NCBI GenBank assembly: GCA_018242255.1
Contig: JAFECH010000345.1
Coordinates: forward strand, 45,799 to 109,798
DNA from: Pseudomonadota bacterium
GTDB taxonomy: Bacteria; Pseudomonadota; Alphaproteobacteria; Rhizobiales; Hyphomicrobiaceae
Reading direction: 5' to 3'
DNA: 64,000 nucleotides
In this document: in pieces, positions 40,244 to 52,094 of the stretch
Layout: every line of letters starts with the position of its first letter
How positions within the stretch are numbered: position 1 is the first letter of the stretch
Notes under the pieces: model-generated
Told to the model about the DNA's origin: nothing
The model's input: only the letters and a program-made list of their open reading frames with translations
The model's database searches: none
Translations under genes and position numbers: made by a program

Positions 40244-40696
40244 TTAGCTGCGCCCGCTCGGCGCATTGAGCGCTACGAACCGGGGGCCGACATCGACGTG
40301 GATGTGATCCATGTCACGGTAGGTCATGGTGCCCCCGTTCCGATGGTTGGCAATGAGCCAACGGACGACTTCGGCCTTGCGGCCCGGCACCCGGAAGTCG
40401 ATCGCCTGCCCCGAAGCGTGCCTGGACGGTCGTCCCGTGCCGGCAATACGCGCGCCGGGACGGCAGGTCGAGACGATCTGGACGTTGCCAAATTGTCCGC
40501 GGATACGCGCGAGGAGGTTGCGGGCCTCCGAAGTCAGACACGTAGTCGATGTACCGGAAAGGCCGCTGATCTTGCGGCTCGTCATTGCCCGATCCCGATA
40601 ACGGTCGCCATCATCCCTGTCCGGCCGAGCTTTGGCGACGCCCGACGTTGTGGTGGCAAGTACAAGGCAAAGTACAGCAAGCGTTCCCTTGCGCAT
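40244..40696 (-). CDS. Peptidase M15A-type (D-Ala-D-Ala carboxypeptidase-like) secreted protein
   Basis: Signal peptide; IVSTCRPG, SRHASGQAIDF, HIHVDVG Zn-binding motifs. Confidence 0.85.
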   Translation of the reverse strand: MRKGTLAVLCLVLATTTSGVAKARPDRDDGDRYRDRAMTSRKISGLSGTSTTCLTSEARNLLARIRGQFGNVQIVSTCRPGARIAGTGRPSRHASGQAIDFRVPGRKAEVVRWLIANHRNGGTMTYRDMDHIHVDVGPRFVALNAPSGRS

Positions 40697-42589: not shown

Positions 42590-43981
42590 TCACTCCGGCC
42601 CTATCATCTTTTCCGGACGCACGATCTCATCGAACTCTTTGTCTGTTACATAACCGCCGCCGACGGCTTCATCGCGCAGAGTCGTGCCGTTTTTATGCGC
42701 TGTTTTCGCGATCTTGGCGGCGTTGTCGTAGCCGATCTTCGGCGCGAGCGCCGTCACAAGCATTAACGAGCGCTCCAGCCCGGCTTTGATGTTGTCTTCA
42801 CGCGGCTCGATGCCGACGACGCAATTATCGGTGAACGACACCGCCGCATCGCTCATCAGGCGGACCGATTGCAGGAAATTATAGGCCATCACCGGATTGT
42901 AAACGTTGAGTTCGAAGTGGCCCTGGCTGCCGGCGAACGAAATCGCGGCATTGTTGCCGAAGATCTGGATGCAGACCTGGGTCAGCGCTTCGCACTGAGT
43001 CGGGTTAACTTTGCCCGGCATGATCGACGAGCCGGGCTCGTTCTCAGGCAACGACAACTCGCCGAGGCCGGAGCGCGGCCCCGATCCGAGCAGGCGGATA
43101 TCGTTCGCAATCTTGAACAGAGACGCTGCGACCGTGTTGATTGCGCCGTGCGTGAATACCATCGCGTCGTGGGCGGCGAGCGCTTCGAATTTGTTCGGCG
43201 CCGACTTGAACGGCATGCCGGTAATAGTTGCGATTCGCTCCGCAACCATTTCCGCGAAGCTCTTTGGCGCGTTGAGGCCAGTGCCCACCGCCGTGCCGCC
43301 CTGCGCAAGTTCCATCAGCTTCGGCAGTGACTGCTCGATGCGTTCGATGCCGTTCTCTACCTGCTGGGTATAACCGGAGAATTCCTGACCGAGCGTCAGG
43401 GGCGTCGCATCCTGTGTGTGCGTGCGGCCGATCTTGATGATCTTCGCCCACGCCTTGGCCTTGTCGTCGAGCGCACCCTGTAGCTTCTTGAGCGCAGGGA
43501 TCAGTCGGTTAACGACTTCCTCCGAACACGCGATGTGCATGGCCGTCGGATAGGTGTCGTTCGACGACTGGCTCATGTTGACGTGATCGTTCGGATGCAC
43601 CGGCTTCTTCGAGCCCAACTCGCCCCCGAGCATTTCGATAGCTCGGTTCGAGATGACCTCGTTGGCGTTCATGTTCGATTGCGTGCCCGAGCCGGTCTGC
43701 CAGACGACGAGCGGAAAGTGCGGATCGAGCTTGCCGTCGATGACTTCCTGCGCTGCCTTAACGATGGCATCGCCGATTTTGCCGTCGAGCCGGCCGAGCG
43801 CCATGTTCGTCTCGGCCGCCGCCCGTTTGACGATGCCAAGAGCGCGGACGATAGGGGCCGGCTGCTTTTCCCAGCCGATCTTGAAATTGCCGAGGCTGCG
43901 CTGGGCCTGCGCACCCCAATACCGGTCCGCCGCAACGTCGATGGGTCCGAAGGTGTCGGTTTCAGTGCGCGTCTTTGTCAT
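42590..43981 (-). CDS. fumC: Fumarate hydratase class II
   Basis: [46 protein letters not shown]. Confidence 0.99.
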
Positions 43982-44354
43982 GAGATCGGTCCCATCCGTG
44001 TCTGGCTCGAAAAGTCCGAGCTTCGTCGCGCATGAGGCACGTTTTGTCGAGTGTTTTTAAGCCGATCTAGATCTCCATTATGCCGCGAAATAGCAGCGTC
44101 GAGTCCTTGGAGCGGGTCGGGCGAGTGGCAGGTCTTGATCACCGGCATTCACTGACATGACCGTCGATGTTTTCGGTGCGCATGCGGTCGAGGCGAAATG
44201 CACCGGCTCTATTGCCGAAAATCGCAATTAATTCACGACAACTGCAATAAGTAATGACTCGAAAGATCATTACCTTTAAATCTGGCAGGGAAGTAAGCAA
44301 AGCGACGTTTGACTACGTGCGAAATATTTAGTCGCCGGTCCACGGAGTATTGCA

Positions 44355-46004
44355 ATGTCTGTGCAGCATTCGCCAGCCGCTTCGATCCCCGCCGATACAA
44401 AATGCAAAAGCGGTCCAGCCGATAGTATCGGTATGATTCCTATCGAAAGACGAGCGCTTCTCTTGGGCGCCGCCGCCATGACGGCAGGATCGCTCTGTTC
44501 GCCAGCGTCAGCTAAGCCTGAGGCTCCCGACCTCTCGGGGGCGTTGGAGAAATTCCGGACTACGATCCCCGGTCATTTCGACCGCGATTATATTGAGAAT
44601 GCCGTCATTCCATTTTATCTCGGCAGCGTCTTCGCGGGCGAGCGGCCTATCCTCCCGATGATCGACCTGCCGCTCACGAAGCAAAACGCGATCCCTTATG
44701 ATTTCTGGGGAATGCTTTACGACGATTGGAAGCCGACGCCGTCAGAAGGCGTCACCGTTTTTCTTGAGGGGCTAGAGAACCGCGGCGACAATAATTTGCG
44801 CAAGCGGATCTATTTCAGCGGTGTTACGCCCGACCTCTATGTTCCGAAATACCAAGCCAAGGTCGTCGCCTTCTTCGACAAGCTTCTCGATCCGAAGAAC
44901 GCCGGTAAGCCGTTCATGCGTCACTATCTCGATTATTATTGGGACATTTACTGGGATCTGCATTTGGGCTTGAAGGGCGAAGAAGTGCCCCCGCAAGTTC
45001 GCGCGATCGGAGAAAGTTTCAACACCGTCCTTGCCTATCGCAACCCTCTCGACGACATCGTCTACGAAAACTATATGGCTGTTAGGGCGCTTCGGCCGTT
45101 CCTGACAAAATGGATCGATGCCAAGCTTGACGATATTGAGAAAGGGCGCGTTTCCGAGCCCGAAAAGACCATCGCCTATTACTGGCTTAAGAATGCGGGC
45201 GATGGAAAATATTTCGCGAAGCGAGACGTCATTTTCGAATGCTTCCATAATTTTGTGGCGTTTAGCCAGTGGGGTAATTCCATCTTCGGCATCATGAACC
45301 GCCTCAATCAGAATGGTGGTGATGCCGCGGTTCGGGCGTCCTTCCAAACGACGATGAGCGGCGACTTCGACAATGCGAAAGGCGCGCCTTATACACCCCT
45401 TGAACTTCTGGTCATGGAACTGTTCCGGACGATCTCGCCTAACGGCGGCAGCATATCGGCGATCACCGATACAAGATCTTCGTCTTTTTACGGTGGCTCG
45501 CCATTCGCCGAGCTAGGGCTCCCTTACGAGCGGCACTCGTATATGAATACCCCTCACACCGCCACGAGCTTCGATAAGCGCCTGTGGCAGGAACCTTATC
45601 GCTTCGATCCCGAGCGCTATTTGAGCGTTCCCACCAGCGCTGAGATCAACGAGGAGAAATGTAAACTCGTCGGTCTTCCGCATTGCCCCTTCGACATCAC
45701 CACGCTCCCTGTCAGCGACGGCCGCAAGACGGGGATCACGAACAGCGGCTTTGGAACCGTATTCGCTGTACAAGATGGGAAGGCGGCGCCGGTCTGTGAC
45801 TACGCGGGTTTTGCGCCCTTTGGCTTCGGCTATCGACGCTGCCCTGGAGAGCAACTGACGATCGACGTGTTCGCGGATTTTCTGCGCAAGGTCTGGCGAG
45901 ATAAGATCGTTTTTCACACACTCGGCCAACCCAATCCAGGAAGAGTTCCGGTCGGTCCAGGTGCGGTGATCGACGACGACATCGGTTTCTCACGGCCGAC
46001 GTAA
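44355..46004 (+). CDS. Atypical cytochrome P450-fold protein with a twin-arginine (Tat) signal peptide
   Basis: Heme-thiolate motif FGFGYRRCPG (45819-45848), ExxR (ELFR), PERF-like FDPERY; N-terminal ERRALLLGAAAMTAGSLCSPASA. Confidence 0.8.
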   Translation: MSVQHSPAASIPADTKCKSGPADSIGMIPIERRALLLGAAAMTAGSLCSPASAKPEAPDLSGALEKFRTTIPGHFDRDYIENAVIPFYLGSVFAGERPILPMIDLPLTKQNAIPYDFWGMLYDDWKPTPSEGVTVFLEGLENRGDNNLRKRIYFSGVTPDLYVPKYQAKVVAFFDKLLDPKNAGKPFMRHYLDYYWDIYWDLHLGLKGEEVPPQVRAIGESFNTVLAYRNPLDDIVYENYMAVRALRPFLTKWIDAKLDDIEKGRVSEPEKTIAYYWLKNAGDGKYFAKRDVIFECFHNFVAFSQWGNSIFGIMNRLNQNGGDAAVRASFQTTMSGDFDNAKGAPYTPLELLVMELFRTISPNGGSISAITDTRSSSFYGGSPFAELGLPYERHSYMNTPHTATSFDKRLWQEPYRFDPERYLSVPTSAEINEEKCKLVGLPHCPFDITTLPVSDGRKTGITNSGFGTVFAVQDGKAAPVCDYAGFAPFGFGYRRCPGEQLTIDVFADFLRKVWRDKIVFHTLGQPNPGRVPVGPGAVIDDDIGFSRPT

Positions 46005-46044
46005 CGTCGACGTCTGATGCCGTCCGTAGAGACGCTCGGGCGTT

Positions 46045-46710
46045 TTATTTCTTACGGAATTGATCCAGGCTGAGGATCTTTGCGCCGCCAGTTTCGGACT
46101 GTTTCTCCGCCCCGTCTTCGTCGCCGTCGTTCGGCGGGTTTTCGCCGGCGCGCGTCGCCGGTTCCGGATTGGGCGGCAACGCCTCGGTCGGCGCGACGGC
46201 TGTCAGGGTTGAGATGTTCTGGGCATCCTTGTCAGCGGCGCGCGACTTGCGCGGCGCACGCGGCTTTTTCGGACGCGGAGCTTCGGTGCTGGCATCATCA
46301 TAAGTTGCGTCGATGGCGCGAGGTGCGGACGCGGCGGCCTCTTGCTCGCTGGTCTCTTCATCGAACTGCAGGCCGTAGCGCACGCTCGGATCGATGAAGA
46401 CCTTGATGGCCGCGAACGGTACGACGAGACGTTCCGGGATGCCGTCGAACGTCAGCTTCACCTCGAACCGCTCGTCGGAAACGATCAGGTCCCAGAACCG
46501 ATGCTGCAGGACGATTGTCATCTCGGTCGGATATTTTTCCTTGAGCCGCTTCGACAGGATCACGCCCGGAGCCTGCGTCAGAAAGGAAATATAAAAATGA
46601 TGCTCGCCCGGGAGACCGGTCTTGACGACCCGTTGCAGAACGGCGCGCACGACACCGCGCATCGCCTCTTGCTGCAGTTTCCCGTAATCTATGGACGGCC
46701 CCGATGCCAT
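46045..46710 (-). CDS. sspB: SspB-alpha, ClpXP adaptor (stringent starvation protein B family)
   Basis: IDYGKLQQEAMRGVV, HHFYISF, YPTEMTIVLQHRFWDL, C-terminal ILSLDQFRKK ClpX-binding tail; immediately downstream of ssrA. Confidence 0.93.
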   Translation of the reverse strand: MASGPSIDYGKLQQEAMRGVVRAVLQRVVKTGLPGEHHFYISFLTQAPGVILSKRLKEKYPTEMTIVLQHRFWDLIVSDERFEVKLTFDGIPERLVVPFAAIKVFIDPSVRYGLQFDEETSEQEAAASAPRAIDATYDDASTEAPRPKKPRAPRKSRAADKDAQNISTLTAVAPTEALPPNPEPATRAGENPPNDGDEDGAEKQSETGGAKILSLDQFRKK

Positions 46711-49735: not shown

Positions 49736-49981
49736 AAAGCCTCGCTGCCCTTGAAGGTGCCTGCCGAGGCCCCAAATTGCGATTAGCCAAACCAACGGGA
49801 AATTTGCGAACGTCGGGGCCCTGGCCTATAAGCTGCGCAAATCCGGGTTTTATCTACGTTGCTCAGGCCTTTGCAGTGCAAGTGTTTACATCCGGCGTCA
49901 CCACGGTGCCGCCTACATCTCGGAAGGCCATGGGGGGCACGATTTTAATCTTCAGCTCAAATTCGAAAGAGGCCCTTATTC

Positions 49982-51193
49982 ATGCCCTGGAGTAGTCAAG
50001 GCGGTAGCGGCAGCGGTGGGGGAAACGGCGGCCGCAAAGGTGGAGGCGGCCCGTGGGGCCAAGGGCCGTGGGGACCGCAGGGCGGCGGTAGCGGCGGCGG
50101 CAAGGAGCCGCCCGATCTCGATGAAATTCTGCGTCGCGGCCAGGATCGCATGCGTCAGGTGATGCGCGGCGGCGGCGGCAACGGCAGCGGCGGCGGCAGC
50201 TTCGGCGGCGGCGTACCTAAGCCGTTCCTGTTCTTTATCGCGATGCTCGTTCTGGCGGGCGTTGTGTTCTACGGCTTCTTCTTCCGCGTGAATCCGGATG
50301 AGCAGGGCATCGTCCTGCGCTTCGGCAAATATGAACGCTGGGTCGGCCCCGGCCTCAACTGGCGCTTGCCGTACCCGATCGAGGAAGTCCGCCTGCCGAA
50401 GGTAACGCAGCAGCGCACCATCGAAATAGGTGCCGGTCGCAGCGTCATCGGTGCGCGCGACAGCGGCTTGATGCTGACGGGCGATGGCAGCGTCGTTGAT
50501 GTCCGCTTCGTCGTCTTCTGGCGAATAAGCCCCGACAAGAACGAAGCCAACGGCCAGACCGGCGTTGAAGAATTCCTGTTCAACATCGCTCAGCCGGAAA
50601 CGACAGTGCGCGAAGTTGCCGAAAGCGCGATGCGCGAGGTCGTCGGCCAGTCCAATCTGCAGCCGCTTCTGACCGGTGGCCGTCAGGCGACGCAGGAAGC
50701 CGTGCAAAAGCTCATGCAGAAGACGCTCGACTCCTACGGCGCGGGCATCAAGATCGACCAGGTTCAGTTGAAAGAGGTCGATCCGCCTGAAGAAGTCATT
50801 CGCTCGTTCCGCGAAGTGGCGGCTGCGGCGCAGGAAAAGGAAACTCTTATCAAGCAGGCGCAGACGTATGCCGATCAGGTCGTGCCGCGCGCGCACGGCG
50901 ATGCTGATCGCATCATCGCCGCCGCCGAGGGCTATCGCGACCAGACGGTCGCCGAAGCAACCGGTCAGGCCGCCCGCTTCCTCAAGGTCTACGACGAATA
51001 TAAGAAGGCGCCCGACGTGACGCGCGAACGGCTCTATCTCGAAATGCAGGAGCGTGTGCTGTCCGGCGCCGACAAGATCATTCTCGATCAGAAGAGCAAC
51101 GGCCAGGGCGTCGTTCCGTTCTTGCCGCTGGAGCAGCTTCAGCGTCAGCCGAAAGACGATCAGACCAGCACCGATGCCGATGGAGCGAAATAA
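49982..51193 (+). CDS. hflK: FtsH modulator HflK
   Basis: MPWS...GGPWG, PPDLDEIL, VLRFGK, MLTGD, VDPPEEVIRSF, APDVTRERLYLE. Confidence 0.97.
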   Translation: MPWSSQGGSGSGGGNGGRKGGGGPWGQGPWGPQGGGSGGGKEPPDLDEILRRGQDRMRQVMRGGGGNGSGGGSFGGGVPKPFLFFIAMLVLAGVVFYGFFFRVNPDEQGIVLRFGKYERWVGPGLNWRLPYPIEEVRLPKVTQQRTIEIGAGRSVIGARDSGLMLTGDGSVVDVRFVVFWRISPDKNEANGQTGVEEFLFNIAQPETTVREVAESAMREVVGQSNLQPLLTGGRQATQEAVQKLMQKTLDSYGAGIKIDQVQLKEVDPPEEVIRSFREVAAAAQEKETLIKQAQTYADQVVPRAHGDADRIIAAAEGYRDQTVAEATGQAARFLKVYDEYKKAPDVTRERLYLEMQERVLSGADKIILDQKSNGQGVVPFLPLEQLQRQPKDDQTSTDADGAK

Positions 51194-51194
51194 C

Positions 51195-52094
51195 ATGCGT
51201 GCGTTTTTCGCTTTCATTCTCGCCGTCATCGGCGTCGCCGCGGTGGTTCTCTATTCCTCCGCTTTCATCGTCCACCAGAATGAGCAGGCACTTGTCCTGC
51301 GCTTCGGTAAGGCGCAACCGGCTGTCACTCAGCCGGGCTTGCATTGGAAGATGCCGTTCATCGATACGGTCGAGAAATTCGACAAGCGTATTCTCGATCT
51401 CGACACGACCGAGCAGGAAGTCACGGCGTCCGATCAGCAGCGTCTCATCGTCGACGCCTACGCCCGCTATCGCATTGTCGATCTGTTGAAGTTCTATCAG
51501 AACGTTCACGATGAAGACCGCGTCCGAGAAGTCGTCGGTCCGCTGATCGAATCTGAAATCCGCCGAGTGCTTGGTTCGGCGACCTTGCAAGAGGTCGTGA
51601 AGGACAAGCGTGAATCGCTGATGAAACAGATCGCGGATCAGGTGAACGCGGAAGGCCGCGACTATGGCCTCGAAGTTGTCGACGTCCGCATCAAGCGCGC
51701 CGATCTTCCGCAGGAAAACCTCGTCAAGGTTTACGACCGCATGCGGGCCGACCGTGTCCGCGAGGCAACCGAGCTTCGCGCCCAGGGTGAGGCTGAAAGC
51801 AACCGCGTCCGCGCCAACGCCGACAAGGACGTCACGATCATCAAGGCGACGGCCACGCAGAAGTCGGACGAAATCCGCGGCGACGGCGAGGCCAAGCGCA
51901 GCCGCATCTTCGCCGAAGCCTTTGGTCAGGATCCGGACTTCTTCCGCTTCTACCGGTCGATGCAGGCGTATACGACGGCCCTAAAACCGGGCGATACCCG
52001 CATGCTGTTGTCGCCCAACAGCGAATTCTTCCGGTATTTTGAGGATCCTAACGGTAAGGCTCCCGCGGCGGCTGCACCCGAGCCGCAGCGATGA
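51195..52094 (+). CDS. hflC: FtsH modulator HflC
   Basis: ALVLRFGK, GLHWKMPF, DKRILD, VVDVRIKRADLP, DPDFFRFYRSMQAY. Confidence 0.97.
   Translation: MRAFFAFILAVIGVAAVVLYSSAFIVHQNEQALVLRFGKAQPAVTQPGLHWKMPFIDTVEKFDKRILDLDTTEQEVTASDQQRLIVDAYARYRIVDLLKFYQNVHDEDRVREVVGPLIESEIRRVLGSATLQEVVKDKRESLMKQIADQVNAEGRDYGLEVVDVRIKRADLPQENLVKVYDRMRADRVREATELRAQGEAESNRVRANADKDVTIIKATATQKSDEIRGDGEAKRSRIFAEAFGQDPDFFRFYRSMQAYTTALKPGDTRMLLSPNSEFFRYFEDPNGKAPAAAAPEPQR

Follow-up and report, generated by a model that had tools for sequence, protein, structure and literature searches.

To our knowledge, all bacterial cytochromes P450 studied so far are cytoplasmic and work with NAD(P)H-fed partners or, rarely, with H2O2. 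The subject of this report is a P450-like gene in a 64,000-nucleotide stretch of contig JAFECH010000345.1 from a Pseudomonadota bacterium (hereafter the window), the predicted product of which carries a twin-arginine translocation (Tat) signal and has an unusual I helix. As judged from the sequences compared, the gene belongs to a widespread, highly conserved branch of the P450 superfamily that is unusual in its location and in its distal pocket and has a channel partner encoded in most genomes, though not in this one. The functionally closest P450s are those of the CYP152 family (P450BS-beta, P450SP-alpha and OleT), which share with the window family the P450 fold, the Cys thiolate and the lack of the I-helix acid-alcohol pair, and which are driven by H2O2 and do not need a redox partner. 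However, the CYP152 enzymes are cytoplasmic and about 415 aa long, whereas the window protein possesses a Tat signal and comprises 549 aa.

Enzymes of the CYP74 family (allene oxide synthase, hydroperoxide lyase), as well as CYP8A1 and CYP5A1 (prostacyclin and thromboxane synthases), rearrange (endo)peroxides without O2 or a reductase, and their I helix features an amide side chain (Asn) instead of the conserved Thr. By analogy, residues Q305 and N299 of the window family could play a role similar to that of the CYP74/CYP8A Asn, although the CYP74 enzymes are of plant or metazoan origin and are not exported by Tat. A precedent for the export logic is the DyP-family protein EfeB (YcdB), a haem-b enzyme that acquires its fold and its cofactor in the cytoplasm, leaves it through Tat and uses peroxide in the periplasm; it differs from the window protein in its unrelated fold, in having His instead of Cys as the axial ligand and in its efeUOB context. 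The fungal unspecific peroxygenases (UPOs) are haem-thiolate enzymes that act outside the cytoplasm; they need only H2O2 to oxyfunctionalise hydrophobic substrates and use a distal acid-base pair. They provide the closest functional analogy to the role proposed below, but have a different, smaller, non-P450 fold, and no sequence or structural match to a UPO was seen in this analysis. Bacterial UPO-like haem-thiolate enzymes also exist (PMC13394420).

The COG4313 outer-membrane channels are implicated in taking up hydrophobic molecules (SphA for sphingosine, TcpY for trichlorophenol), and the gene of one such channel, Pput2725, adjoins aromatic-degradation genes (PMC4493636). These systems would follow the same logic as the family described here, namely outer-membrane entry beside a substrate-handling enzyme. 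Unlike in the known systems, the first enzyme here would itself be periplasmic, and the window contains no channel gene. The same paper links the channels to the uptake and degradation of hydrophobic compounds and describes no periplasmic P450-type partner (PMC4493636). In a literature search lacking most subscription journals, neither a characterised member of the family nor a native Tat-exported or periplasmic P450 was found. Likewise, no homologue was found to have been characterised as an ordinary reductase-dependent P450.

P450 fold and conserved residues

The final AlphaFold model, built from 49 diverse homologues, has a predicted local distance difference test score (pLDDT) of 85.1 and a predicted template-modelling score (pTM) of 0.85, residues 1-55 being its sole low-confidence part. 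All the fold features looked for in the model (the long kinked I helix, the K helix, the meander, the Cys pocket and the L helix) were found. A Foldseek search returned 970 PDB matches at E ≤ 1e-3. All 50 among the matches listed are P450s, with 420-516 aligned columns, a target-normalised template-modelling (TM) score of 0.43-0.62 and a root-mean-square deviation of 7-10 Å (most 7-8.5 Å). The matches extend over practically all of the domain but are distant. No subfamily is prominent, and CYP120A1, CYP21A2, CYP51, CYP46A1, CYP97 and OleT are interleaved among the matches listed. We consider the P450 fold to be practically certain. On the model, membership in the P450 superfamily is regarded as established; membership in any known P450 family is not. 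A sequence-only reading of the open reading frame (ORF) had already proposed a P450 from the hallmarks FGFGYRRCPG, ELFR and FDPERY. These are present and near-invariant in the family, and the fold is borne out by the model, by Foldseek and by the family profile, which reaches the P450s of the PDB.

Taken by itself, the sequence evidence for a P450 is real but thin. The Pfam p450 model (PF00067), which had been suggested as a check, does match the window protein at the Cys loop, but only there (residues 483-501), and the score of 20.9 bits lies below the cut-off of 22.8 bits. This score is a sensitivity limit of the model and not evidence against homology; some relatives exceed the cut-off (e.g., P0125 at 24.3 bits). 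Searches of NCBIfam and a single-sequence search of the PDB with the window protein gave nothing significant. Foot-and-mouth disease virus (FMDV) VP1 and botulinum toxin, which stood ahead of insignificant P450s in the PDB searches with the single sequence or with a close-family profile, were dismissed as chance matches. PDB P450s were reached significantly only after the divergent members (36-45% identity) had been added to the family profile. This profile matches CYP1A2 at E = 8.4e-7, followed by CYP76, CYP152, CYP1B1 and CYP120, with the ExxR, PERF and Cys-loop regions aligned in the correct order. A profile of 31 close homologues, compared with 1.84 billion representative proteins, found only 878 at E ≤ 1e-3 and did not reach ordinary P450s, so the family appears compact and isolated.

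The core alignment comprised 31 sequences from five phyla or classes and was later extended with 28-43%-divergent members. Residues R32, R33, E295, H298, N299, Q305, W306, E355, R358 and C496 are invariant in the 31 sequences, and most of them stay invariant after the extension; the mature part of the protein is about 70% identical across phyla. The Cys loop has the canonical spacing F-x-x-G-x-R-x-C-x-G, with F489, G492, R494, C496 and G498 invariant in the alignments, and 216 of the 246 family members carry FGFGYRRCPGE. The FDPERY motif aligns to the PERF region of the CYP1A2, CYP76 and CYP152 chains. From these motifs, the product is expected to be a haem-b, Cys-thiolate protein. The meander between the two motifs, with an insertion of 35 residues, is longer than is typical for P450s and contains three strands in the model (residues 459-463, 469-473 and 476-478). 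Two of its cysteines, C444 and C481, are conserved in Tat and non-Tat clades. The idea of cysteines kept for periplasm-specific disulfides was rejected, because C296, C444 and C481 are also conserved in members without a signal.

The most distinctive part of the sequence is the I helix, in which residues 294-309 read FECFHNFVAFSQWGNS. The sequence-only reading had noted that the window protein lacks the oxygen-activation motif, which is typical of monooxygenase P450s without being universal among them, and this absence extends to the whole family: [AG]G.[DE][TS] occurs in the I-helix region of none of the 246 full-length members. Instead, all 246 carry FE(C/V/S)FHNF(V/L)A(L/F)SQWGN there, with E295, H298, N299, A302, Q305 and W306 invariant. 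Residues F303-S304-Q305-W306-G307 occupy the kink of the modelled helix, the usual place of the oxygen-binding kink. On this register, Trp-Gly would stand in place of the acid-alcohol pair. A likeness of FSQWGN to the CYP74 I-helix motif was rejected as evidence, because the register clashes with the upstream HN and the structural ranking gives it no support.

Export signal and breadth of the family

In the window protein, the putative signal consists of E31-R32-R33, then ALLLGAAAMTAGSLCSPASA, and is followed by K54. Its h-region is ALLLGAAAMTAGSL, and the part from the Tat motif through the cleavage site reads IERRALLLGAAAMTAGSLCSPASA, with K as the next residue. Cleavage is predicted between A53 and K54 by the AxA rule. 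A twin-arginine signal had been proposed from this single sequence, and the comparison with relatives upholds it: the RR pair, followed by an uncharged Ala/Gly-rich stretch, is kept in 111 of 117 full-length close homologues. The six exceptions comprise one protein with MERRKFLK, for which the filter was too strict, and five gene calls that start inside the h-region. The family consensus (M/V)ERR(T/A)(L/V/F)L(L/K)GAAA fits S/T-R-R-x-F-L-K, and many homologues begin with MERRTFLKGAA. The signal model TIGR01409 is matched by 5 of 31 relatives (best E 7.6e-4), and several relatives bear the NCBI name 'twin-arginine translocation signal domain-containing protein'. In the window protein and its Hyphomicrobiales relatives, some 30 extra and poorly conserved residues precede the RR pair.

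The start codon upstream of the RR pair is conserved as well. In an upstream alignment of 17 related loci, the ATG and the layout GGGAG-N7-8-ATG are kept at the same aligned position, which indicates that the long N-terminus is translated and that R32-R33 lie within the product. The only in-frame Met after R33 is M42, a non-conserved residue of the h-region. The signal region drifts in sequence and keeps its features, and the conservation of about 70% begins directly after the AxA site; this is the pattern of a cleaved signal peptide. Judged by these features, a periplasmic location of the mature protein is very probable.

When one genome per species was scanned, 376 of 185,579 species proved to carry the gene. 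The family includes more than 1,300 clusters at 90% identity, and more than 1,340 homologue clusters are 62-85% identical to the window protein. Members are frequent among bacteria of acid soils and peat (Bradyrhizobium, Roseiarcus, Acidobacteriota, Verrucomicrobiota, Paraburkholderia) and are also present on Serratia plasmids and in Yersinia frederiksenii, a distribution that suggests an abundant environmental or plant/fungus-derived lipid or aromatic as the probable substrate.

A search from a divergent member revealed a large signal-less cyanobacterial clade, the proteins of which begin with MSFFPILD (Nostocaceae, Calothrix, Scytonema, Symploca, Okeania, Crocosphaera, Leptolyngbya). Short forms start directly at the mature domain. 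Other clades also have no signal, and the RR signal is found in only 18 of the 107 proteins from this search. A single alignment column separates the Tat from the non-Tat members, and the conserved cysteines are common to both, so far as sequence can tell a sign that one and the same catalytic apparatus serves on either side of the membrane. The existence of signal-less copies with a near-identical catalytic domain would suggest that the chemistry is not tied to a reductase confined to the cytoplasm. The earlier notion of a 'periplasmic P450 family' fits the close homologues, in which the Tat signal is conserved, but is too broad for the large cyanobacterial and other clades without it.

Some signal-less members show an association of another kind. 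P0126 (800 aa) has a PF12902 ferritin-like domain fused to the P450-like domain, and in locus L094 (7001-14756) a separate PF12902 gene, with lodA/lodB behind it, comes after a signal-less P450-like gene. Amino-acid oxidases of the LodA quinoprotein type release H2O2, and the presence of ferritin-like PF12902 genes next to fungal lodA/lodB was noted previously (PMC4417212). The locus is compatible with a supply of peroxide, as a single and anecdotal case. The PF12902 link may represent a second, cytoplasmic partnership of the family.

Gene neighbourhoods and competing explanations

Neighbours were counted in 80 loci fetched from the species scan, where all ORFs within 6 kb were clustered. A gene for a COG4313 (PF13557) outer-membrane channel, recognised with a hidden Markov model (HMM) of the downstream gene, is directly adjacent in 53 of the 80 loci; in most cases it lies downstream in the same orientation at a distance of 30-80 bp, in some it is upstream or convergent. 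The P450-like and channel genes of a 214-kb Paraburkholderia replicon form a cassette between insertion sequence (IS) elements. On the Serratia fonticola plasmid pR28_180 (locus L096, 8878-11512), the Tat-P450 gene is accompanied by a downstream 'transporter' at the usual position of the channel. The P450-like/channel module is mobile.

Other neighbours recur less often. A patatin-like lipase gene, in many cases the immediate neighbour, is present in 15 of the 80 loci, some of which have no channel gene, and a GntP-like permease gene in 10. Five loci encode a NOX-like membrane protein of 439 aa with Ferric_reduct, FAD and NAD-binding domains, namely L001 (6846-8165, minus strand) in Yersinia and L014, L053, L070 and L087 in alphaproteobacterial or proteobacterial metagenome-assembled genomes (MAGs). 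The NOX-like gene is located 0-4 kb off in varied arrangements, and its product is 74-78% identical across classes (Yersinia versus Alphaproteobacteria). The protein aligns over its full length with PDB 8qq7/8qt6, which we take to be the Streptococcus pneumoniae NADPH oxidase. NOX-type proteins take electrons from NAD(P)H in the cytoplasm and deliver them to the outside, and this neighbour could be a candidate periplasmic source of superoxide/H2O2 or an electron donor; as a pointer to peroxide it is anecdotal. No ferredoxin, ferredoxin reductase or cytochrome c family is recurrent within 6 kb in the 80 loci. The word 'partner-less', applied to the gene in the sequence-only reading, therefore describes it well with respect to redox partners, but not in general, since the channel, the patatin and the NOX-like protein accompany it elsewhere. 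In Yersinia, the P450-like gene lies between a ferric-reductase-like gene and an iron-chelate-type transporter (Peripla_BP_2/FecCD/ABC).

Several single arrangements may be recorded here. The Serratia cassette lies between IS91/IS21 elements and an S-type pyocin/immunity pair, beyond which there are more transposases. The patatin gene stands beside the P450-like gene, often with the GntP-like permease, in loci L009, L010, L015, L037, L062, L066, L068, L072, L074, L076 and L086. Two MAGs, MFD01138.bin.1.84 and MFD06092.bin.2.145, harbour two copies of the gene each, on different contigs (L021 and L023; L025 and L040); the channel adjoins the copies L021, L023 and L025 and is absent beside L040.

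From the observed fold, motifs, signal conservation and neighbourhoods, we infer haem binding, export, a substrate class and an oxidant. The resulting explanation, an exported haem-thiolate P450 that is peroxide-driven or redox-neutral, is the best we can offer and is advanced tentatively, its chances as a whole being a little short of even. The protein would fold and take up haem in the cytoplasm, the Tat pathway would export it in the folded state, and cleavage within ASA-K (53/54) would release it to the periplasm. There it would convert a hydrophobic or amphipathic small molecule, most likely of lipid or aromatic type, which in most relatives would enter through the COG4313 channel encoded next to the enzyme. 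Two kinds of reaction would be most likely: a 'shunt'-type conversion driven by a peroxide, be it H2O2 or an organic hydroperoxide, and a redox-neutral process in which an already oxygenated substrate is rearranged or dehydrated. Mono-oxygenation with O2 and NAD(P)H would be unlikely. These two types of reaction are suggested by the missing acid-alcohol pair, by the lack of a conserved ferredoxin or reductase and by the signal-less cyanobacterial copies. Independence from classical redox partners is, in our estimate, slightly favoured over dependence on them.

A bolder form of this explanation is possible but more doubtful. It would see here the first natural extracytoplasmic P450 system, in which a Tat-exported haem-thiolate enzyme and a COG4313 channel form a mobile two-gene 'uptake-and-transform' module that uses periplasmic peroxide and the distal set E295/H298/N299/Q305/W306, and the signal-less and ferritin-linked members perform the same chemistry in the cytoplasm. 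In some genomes, the peroxide would possibly come from the adjacent NOX-type oxidase. If true, export with haem to the periplasm would extend P450 chemistry to a nucleotide-free compartment, the family would define a new distal-pocket solution for oxidant activation, and part of the large, poorly understood COG4313 family would gain a function. A partner-free, secretion-competent P450 scaffold would also suit biocatalysis.

A number of results weigh against an exported, peroxide-driven or redox-neutral enzyme. The window protein itself matches neither TIGR01409 nor the Pfam model TAT_signal (PF10518). The channel is absent from the window and from 27 of the 80 related loci. The patatin neighbours have no obvious signal peptide, so a link to lipids through them would be indirect. 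The NOX-like neighbour can equally well be read as a device for electron delivery, that is, for conventional monooxygenation. The conserved I-helix residues that would face the haem are judged from the helix kink alone.

The resemblance to known partner-independent P450s is limited in the same sense. The CYP152 model NF053744 gives the best, though weak, family-specific sequence signal and is matched by 27 of 31 relatives (best E 4.6e-5), and the CYP152 structures 6fyj, 9jqm and 1izo appear in the profile searches. However, the window protein scores only 13.1 bits (E 0.026) against an equivalog cut-off of 600 bits, and the resemblance is local, confined to the PERF and Cys-loop regions. The Arg-Pro of the CYP152 I helix, which binds the substrate carboxylate, has no counterpart in FSQWG, and the segment 294-312 of the window protein (FECFHNFVAFSQWGNSIFG) contains no Arg, the positional equivalence being taken from the helix kink. 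OleT and P450BS-beta are among the Foldseek matches listed, with a TM score of only about 0.5. The first AlphaFold model, built from the 31 close homologues (pLDDT 65.9), ranked CYP152 first; with the 49 diverse sequences this lead was lost in a flat list of P450 families, and a specific CYP152 kinship was dropped. Of the suggested alignment to CYP152, then, only the weak local signal persists. The other suggested relative, CYP74, found no support: it is absent from the 50 Foldseek matches listed and from the PDB sequences listed in the profile search, and the Cys loop of the window family has canonical spacing, whereas that of CYP74 carries an insertion.

Three other explanations have to be set against these results. 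The main rival, a conventional O2-dependent periplasmic monooxygenase supplied with electrons by a NOX/ferric-reductase-type flavocytochrome or by unlinked cytochromes c or cupredoxins, would make good sense of the NOX-like gene within 0-4 kb, which turns up in varied arrangements and different bacterial classes and the product of which aligns in full with 8qq7/8qt6. Moreover, some P450s, such as EryF and P450cin, function without the I-helix Thr. We nevertheless regard such an enzyme as unlikely, for the NOX-like gene accompanies only five of the 80 loci and the two-gene plasmid cassette does without it, no cytochrome c or ferredoxin recurs nearby, and no member retains either the acid or the alcohol of the proton relay. 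In addition, the signal-less cyanobacterial members have virtually the same sequence, the proximal face included.

It is improbable that the protein is not released to the periplasm, the RR segment being an uncleaved membrane anchor or the whole protein being cytoplasmic. The RR pair, the uncharged h-region and the AxA c-region are kept in 111 of 117 homologues while their surroundings drift, many homologues show the textbook MERRxFLKGAA, and the co-encoded outer-membrane channel fits a periplasmic enzyme. Against this stand the unusually long n-region of 30 residues, the failure of the window protein to match the Tat signal models and the many family members that have no signal; an uncleaved anchor would still leave the enzyme on the periplasmic side. 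A periplasmic haem-binding, haem/iron-handling or sensing protein on a P450 scaffold, analogous to EfeB and not converting any small molecule, is very improbable. The position of the Yersinia gene between a ferric-reductase-like gene and an iron-chelate-type transporter would suit it, and Tat-exported haem-b iron-uptake proteins do exist, EfeB among them, but iron-transport neighbours do not recur in the 80 loci, and the partner that is conserved serves hydrophobic molecules as a channel and is not a TonB-dependent receptor. The invariant distal I-helix residues and the roughly 70% of identical columns are also typical of a precise catalytic pocket.

Setting of the gene in the window

The coordinates of the gene, of its motifs and of the adjoining features are given in Table 1.

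Table 1. Features of the P450-like gene and its immediate surroundings (positions in the window)
Feature	Position	Strand	Remarks
P450-like gene	44355..46004	+	Complete, 549 aa, stop codon included; ORF listing
Shine-Dalgarno GGAG	44344-44347	+	7 nt before ATG; read from sequence
Predicted Tat signal peptide, residues 1-53	44355..44513	+	n-region 1-30, E31-R32-R33, h-region, c-region SPASA
I helix, residues 289-317	45219..45305	+	Helices 289-303 and 305-317 by DSSP on the model, kinked at S304
Family signature FECFHNFVAFSQWGN, residues 294-308	45234-45278	+	Replaces A/G-G-x-D/E-T
K-helix ExxR, E355-L-F-R358	45417..45428	+	E355 and R358 invariant; aligned with ExxR of PDB P450s
PERF-type FDPERY, residues 417-422	45603..45620	+	F417, P419 and R421 invariant
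Extended 'meander', residues 425-488	45627..45818	+	Between PERF and Cys loop; model
Haem-thiolate loop FGFGYRRCPGE, residues 489-499	45819..45851	+	C496 is the predicted axial ligand
Terminator-like hairpin, then T-rich tail	46029..46046	+	Between the convergent P450-like gene and sspB; consensus scan only
fumC	42590-43981	-	Flanking gene, Pfam
sspB	46045-46710	-	Flanking gene, Pfam

The ORF at 44355-46004 is intact. As had been read from the sequence, it is a lone gene between fumC and sspB, and no ferredoxin or reductase was found within about 5 kb of it in the window. A tblastn search of the window found no channel, patatin, GntP-like, MipA or NOX-like partner; two further divergent Tat-bearing members stand alone in the same way. 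The window is otherwise ordinary core chromosome, with dnaE, an RND efflux pair, polA, a polyhydroxybutyrate (PHB) depolymerase, an MFS transporter, hflK/hflC and degP identified by Pfam, and with thyA and folA downstream, the latter two recognised by eye only. The GC-content of the gene and its upstream spacer (window 44000-45800) is 52-55%, against 58-65% in the flanks, and neither fumC nor sspB adjoins a homologue in any of the 80 related loci. With its low GC-content and a fumC/sspB context unique among these loci, the gene looks like a single-gene insertion in this lineage, which fits a horizontal transfer of this gene by itself, its usual channel partner not included.

The intergenic region upstream of the gene is AT-rich and 373 bp long. 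It contains a perfect 7-bp inverted repeat, GTAATGA-N9-TCATTAC (window 44251-44273), about 80-100 bp upstream of the start codon. The repeat includes TGA-N9-TCA, which resembles a RirA/IRO box. Since 76 other loci do not conserve the repeat upstream of the gene, the resemblance was not taken as evidence of iron regulation; the repeat may be an operator specific to this insertion. The upstream regions of other loci often show TTGAC-N17-CTACGA. The hairpin downstream of the gene is weak evidence of a terminator, since shuffled sequences give comparable numbers of such sites.

Near-identical DNA is present in metagenome runs of wastewater, sediment and freshwater origin. Short contigs that match 45272-45550 and 45486-45682 exactly occur in two runs from 'organism A', taken by guess to be RNA, and a DNA run of the same 'organism A' holds 44142-44486; this weakly suggests that the strain lives with 'organism A' and transcribes the gene. 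A low-depth contig of the metagenome run X1 shows an apparent joint 43740->46481, from the interior of fumC to the interior of sspB, skipping 2,740 bases. A strain without the gene was not accepted on this basis, and the joint was treated as an artefact, because it depends on a 45-letter side of a contig that is about 83% alike.

For two long antisense ORFs inside the P450-like gene, 44772-45347 and 45513-45929 (both on the minus strand), 57-60 of the 80 loci contain apparent 'homologues'; both ORFs are shadows cast by the conserved sense frame rather than genes. ORF 49976-51229 (minus strand), opposite hflK at 49982-51193 (plus strand), is likewise a shadow and not a gene. Upstream of the fumC region, window 40244-40696 (minus strand) encodes an unrelated small protein of cell-wall peptidase type (Peptidase_M15/DUF882) with a signal-like N-terminus.

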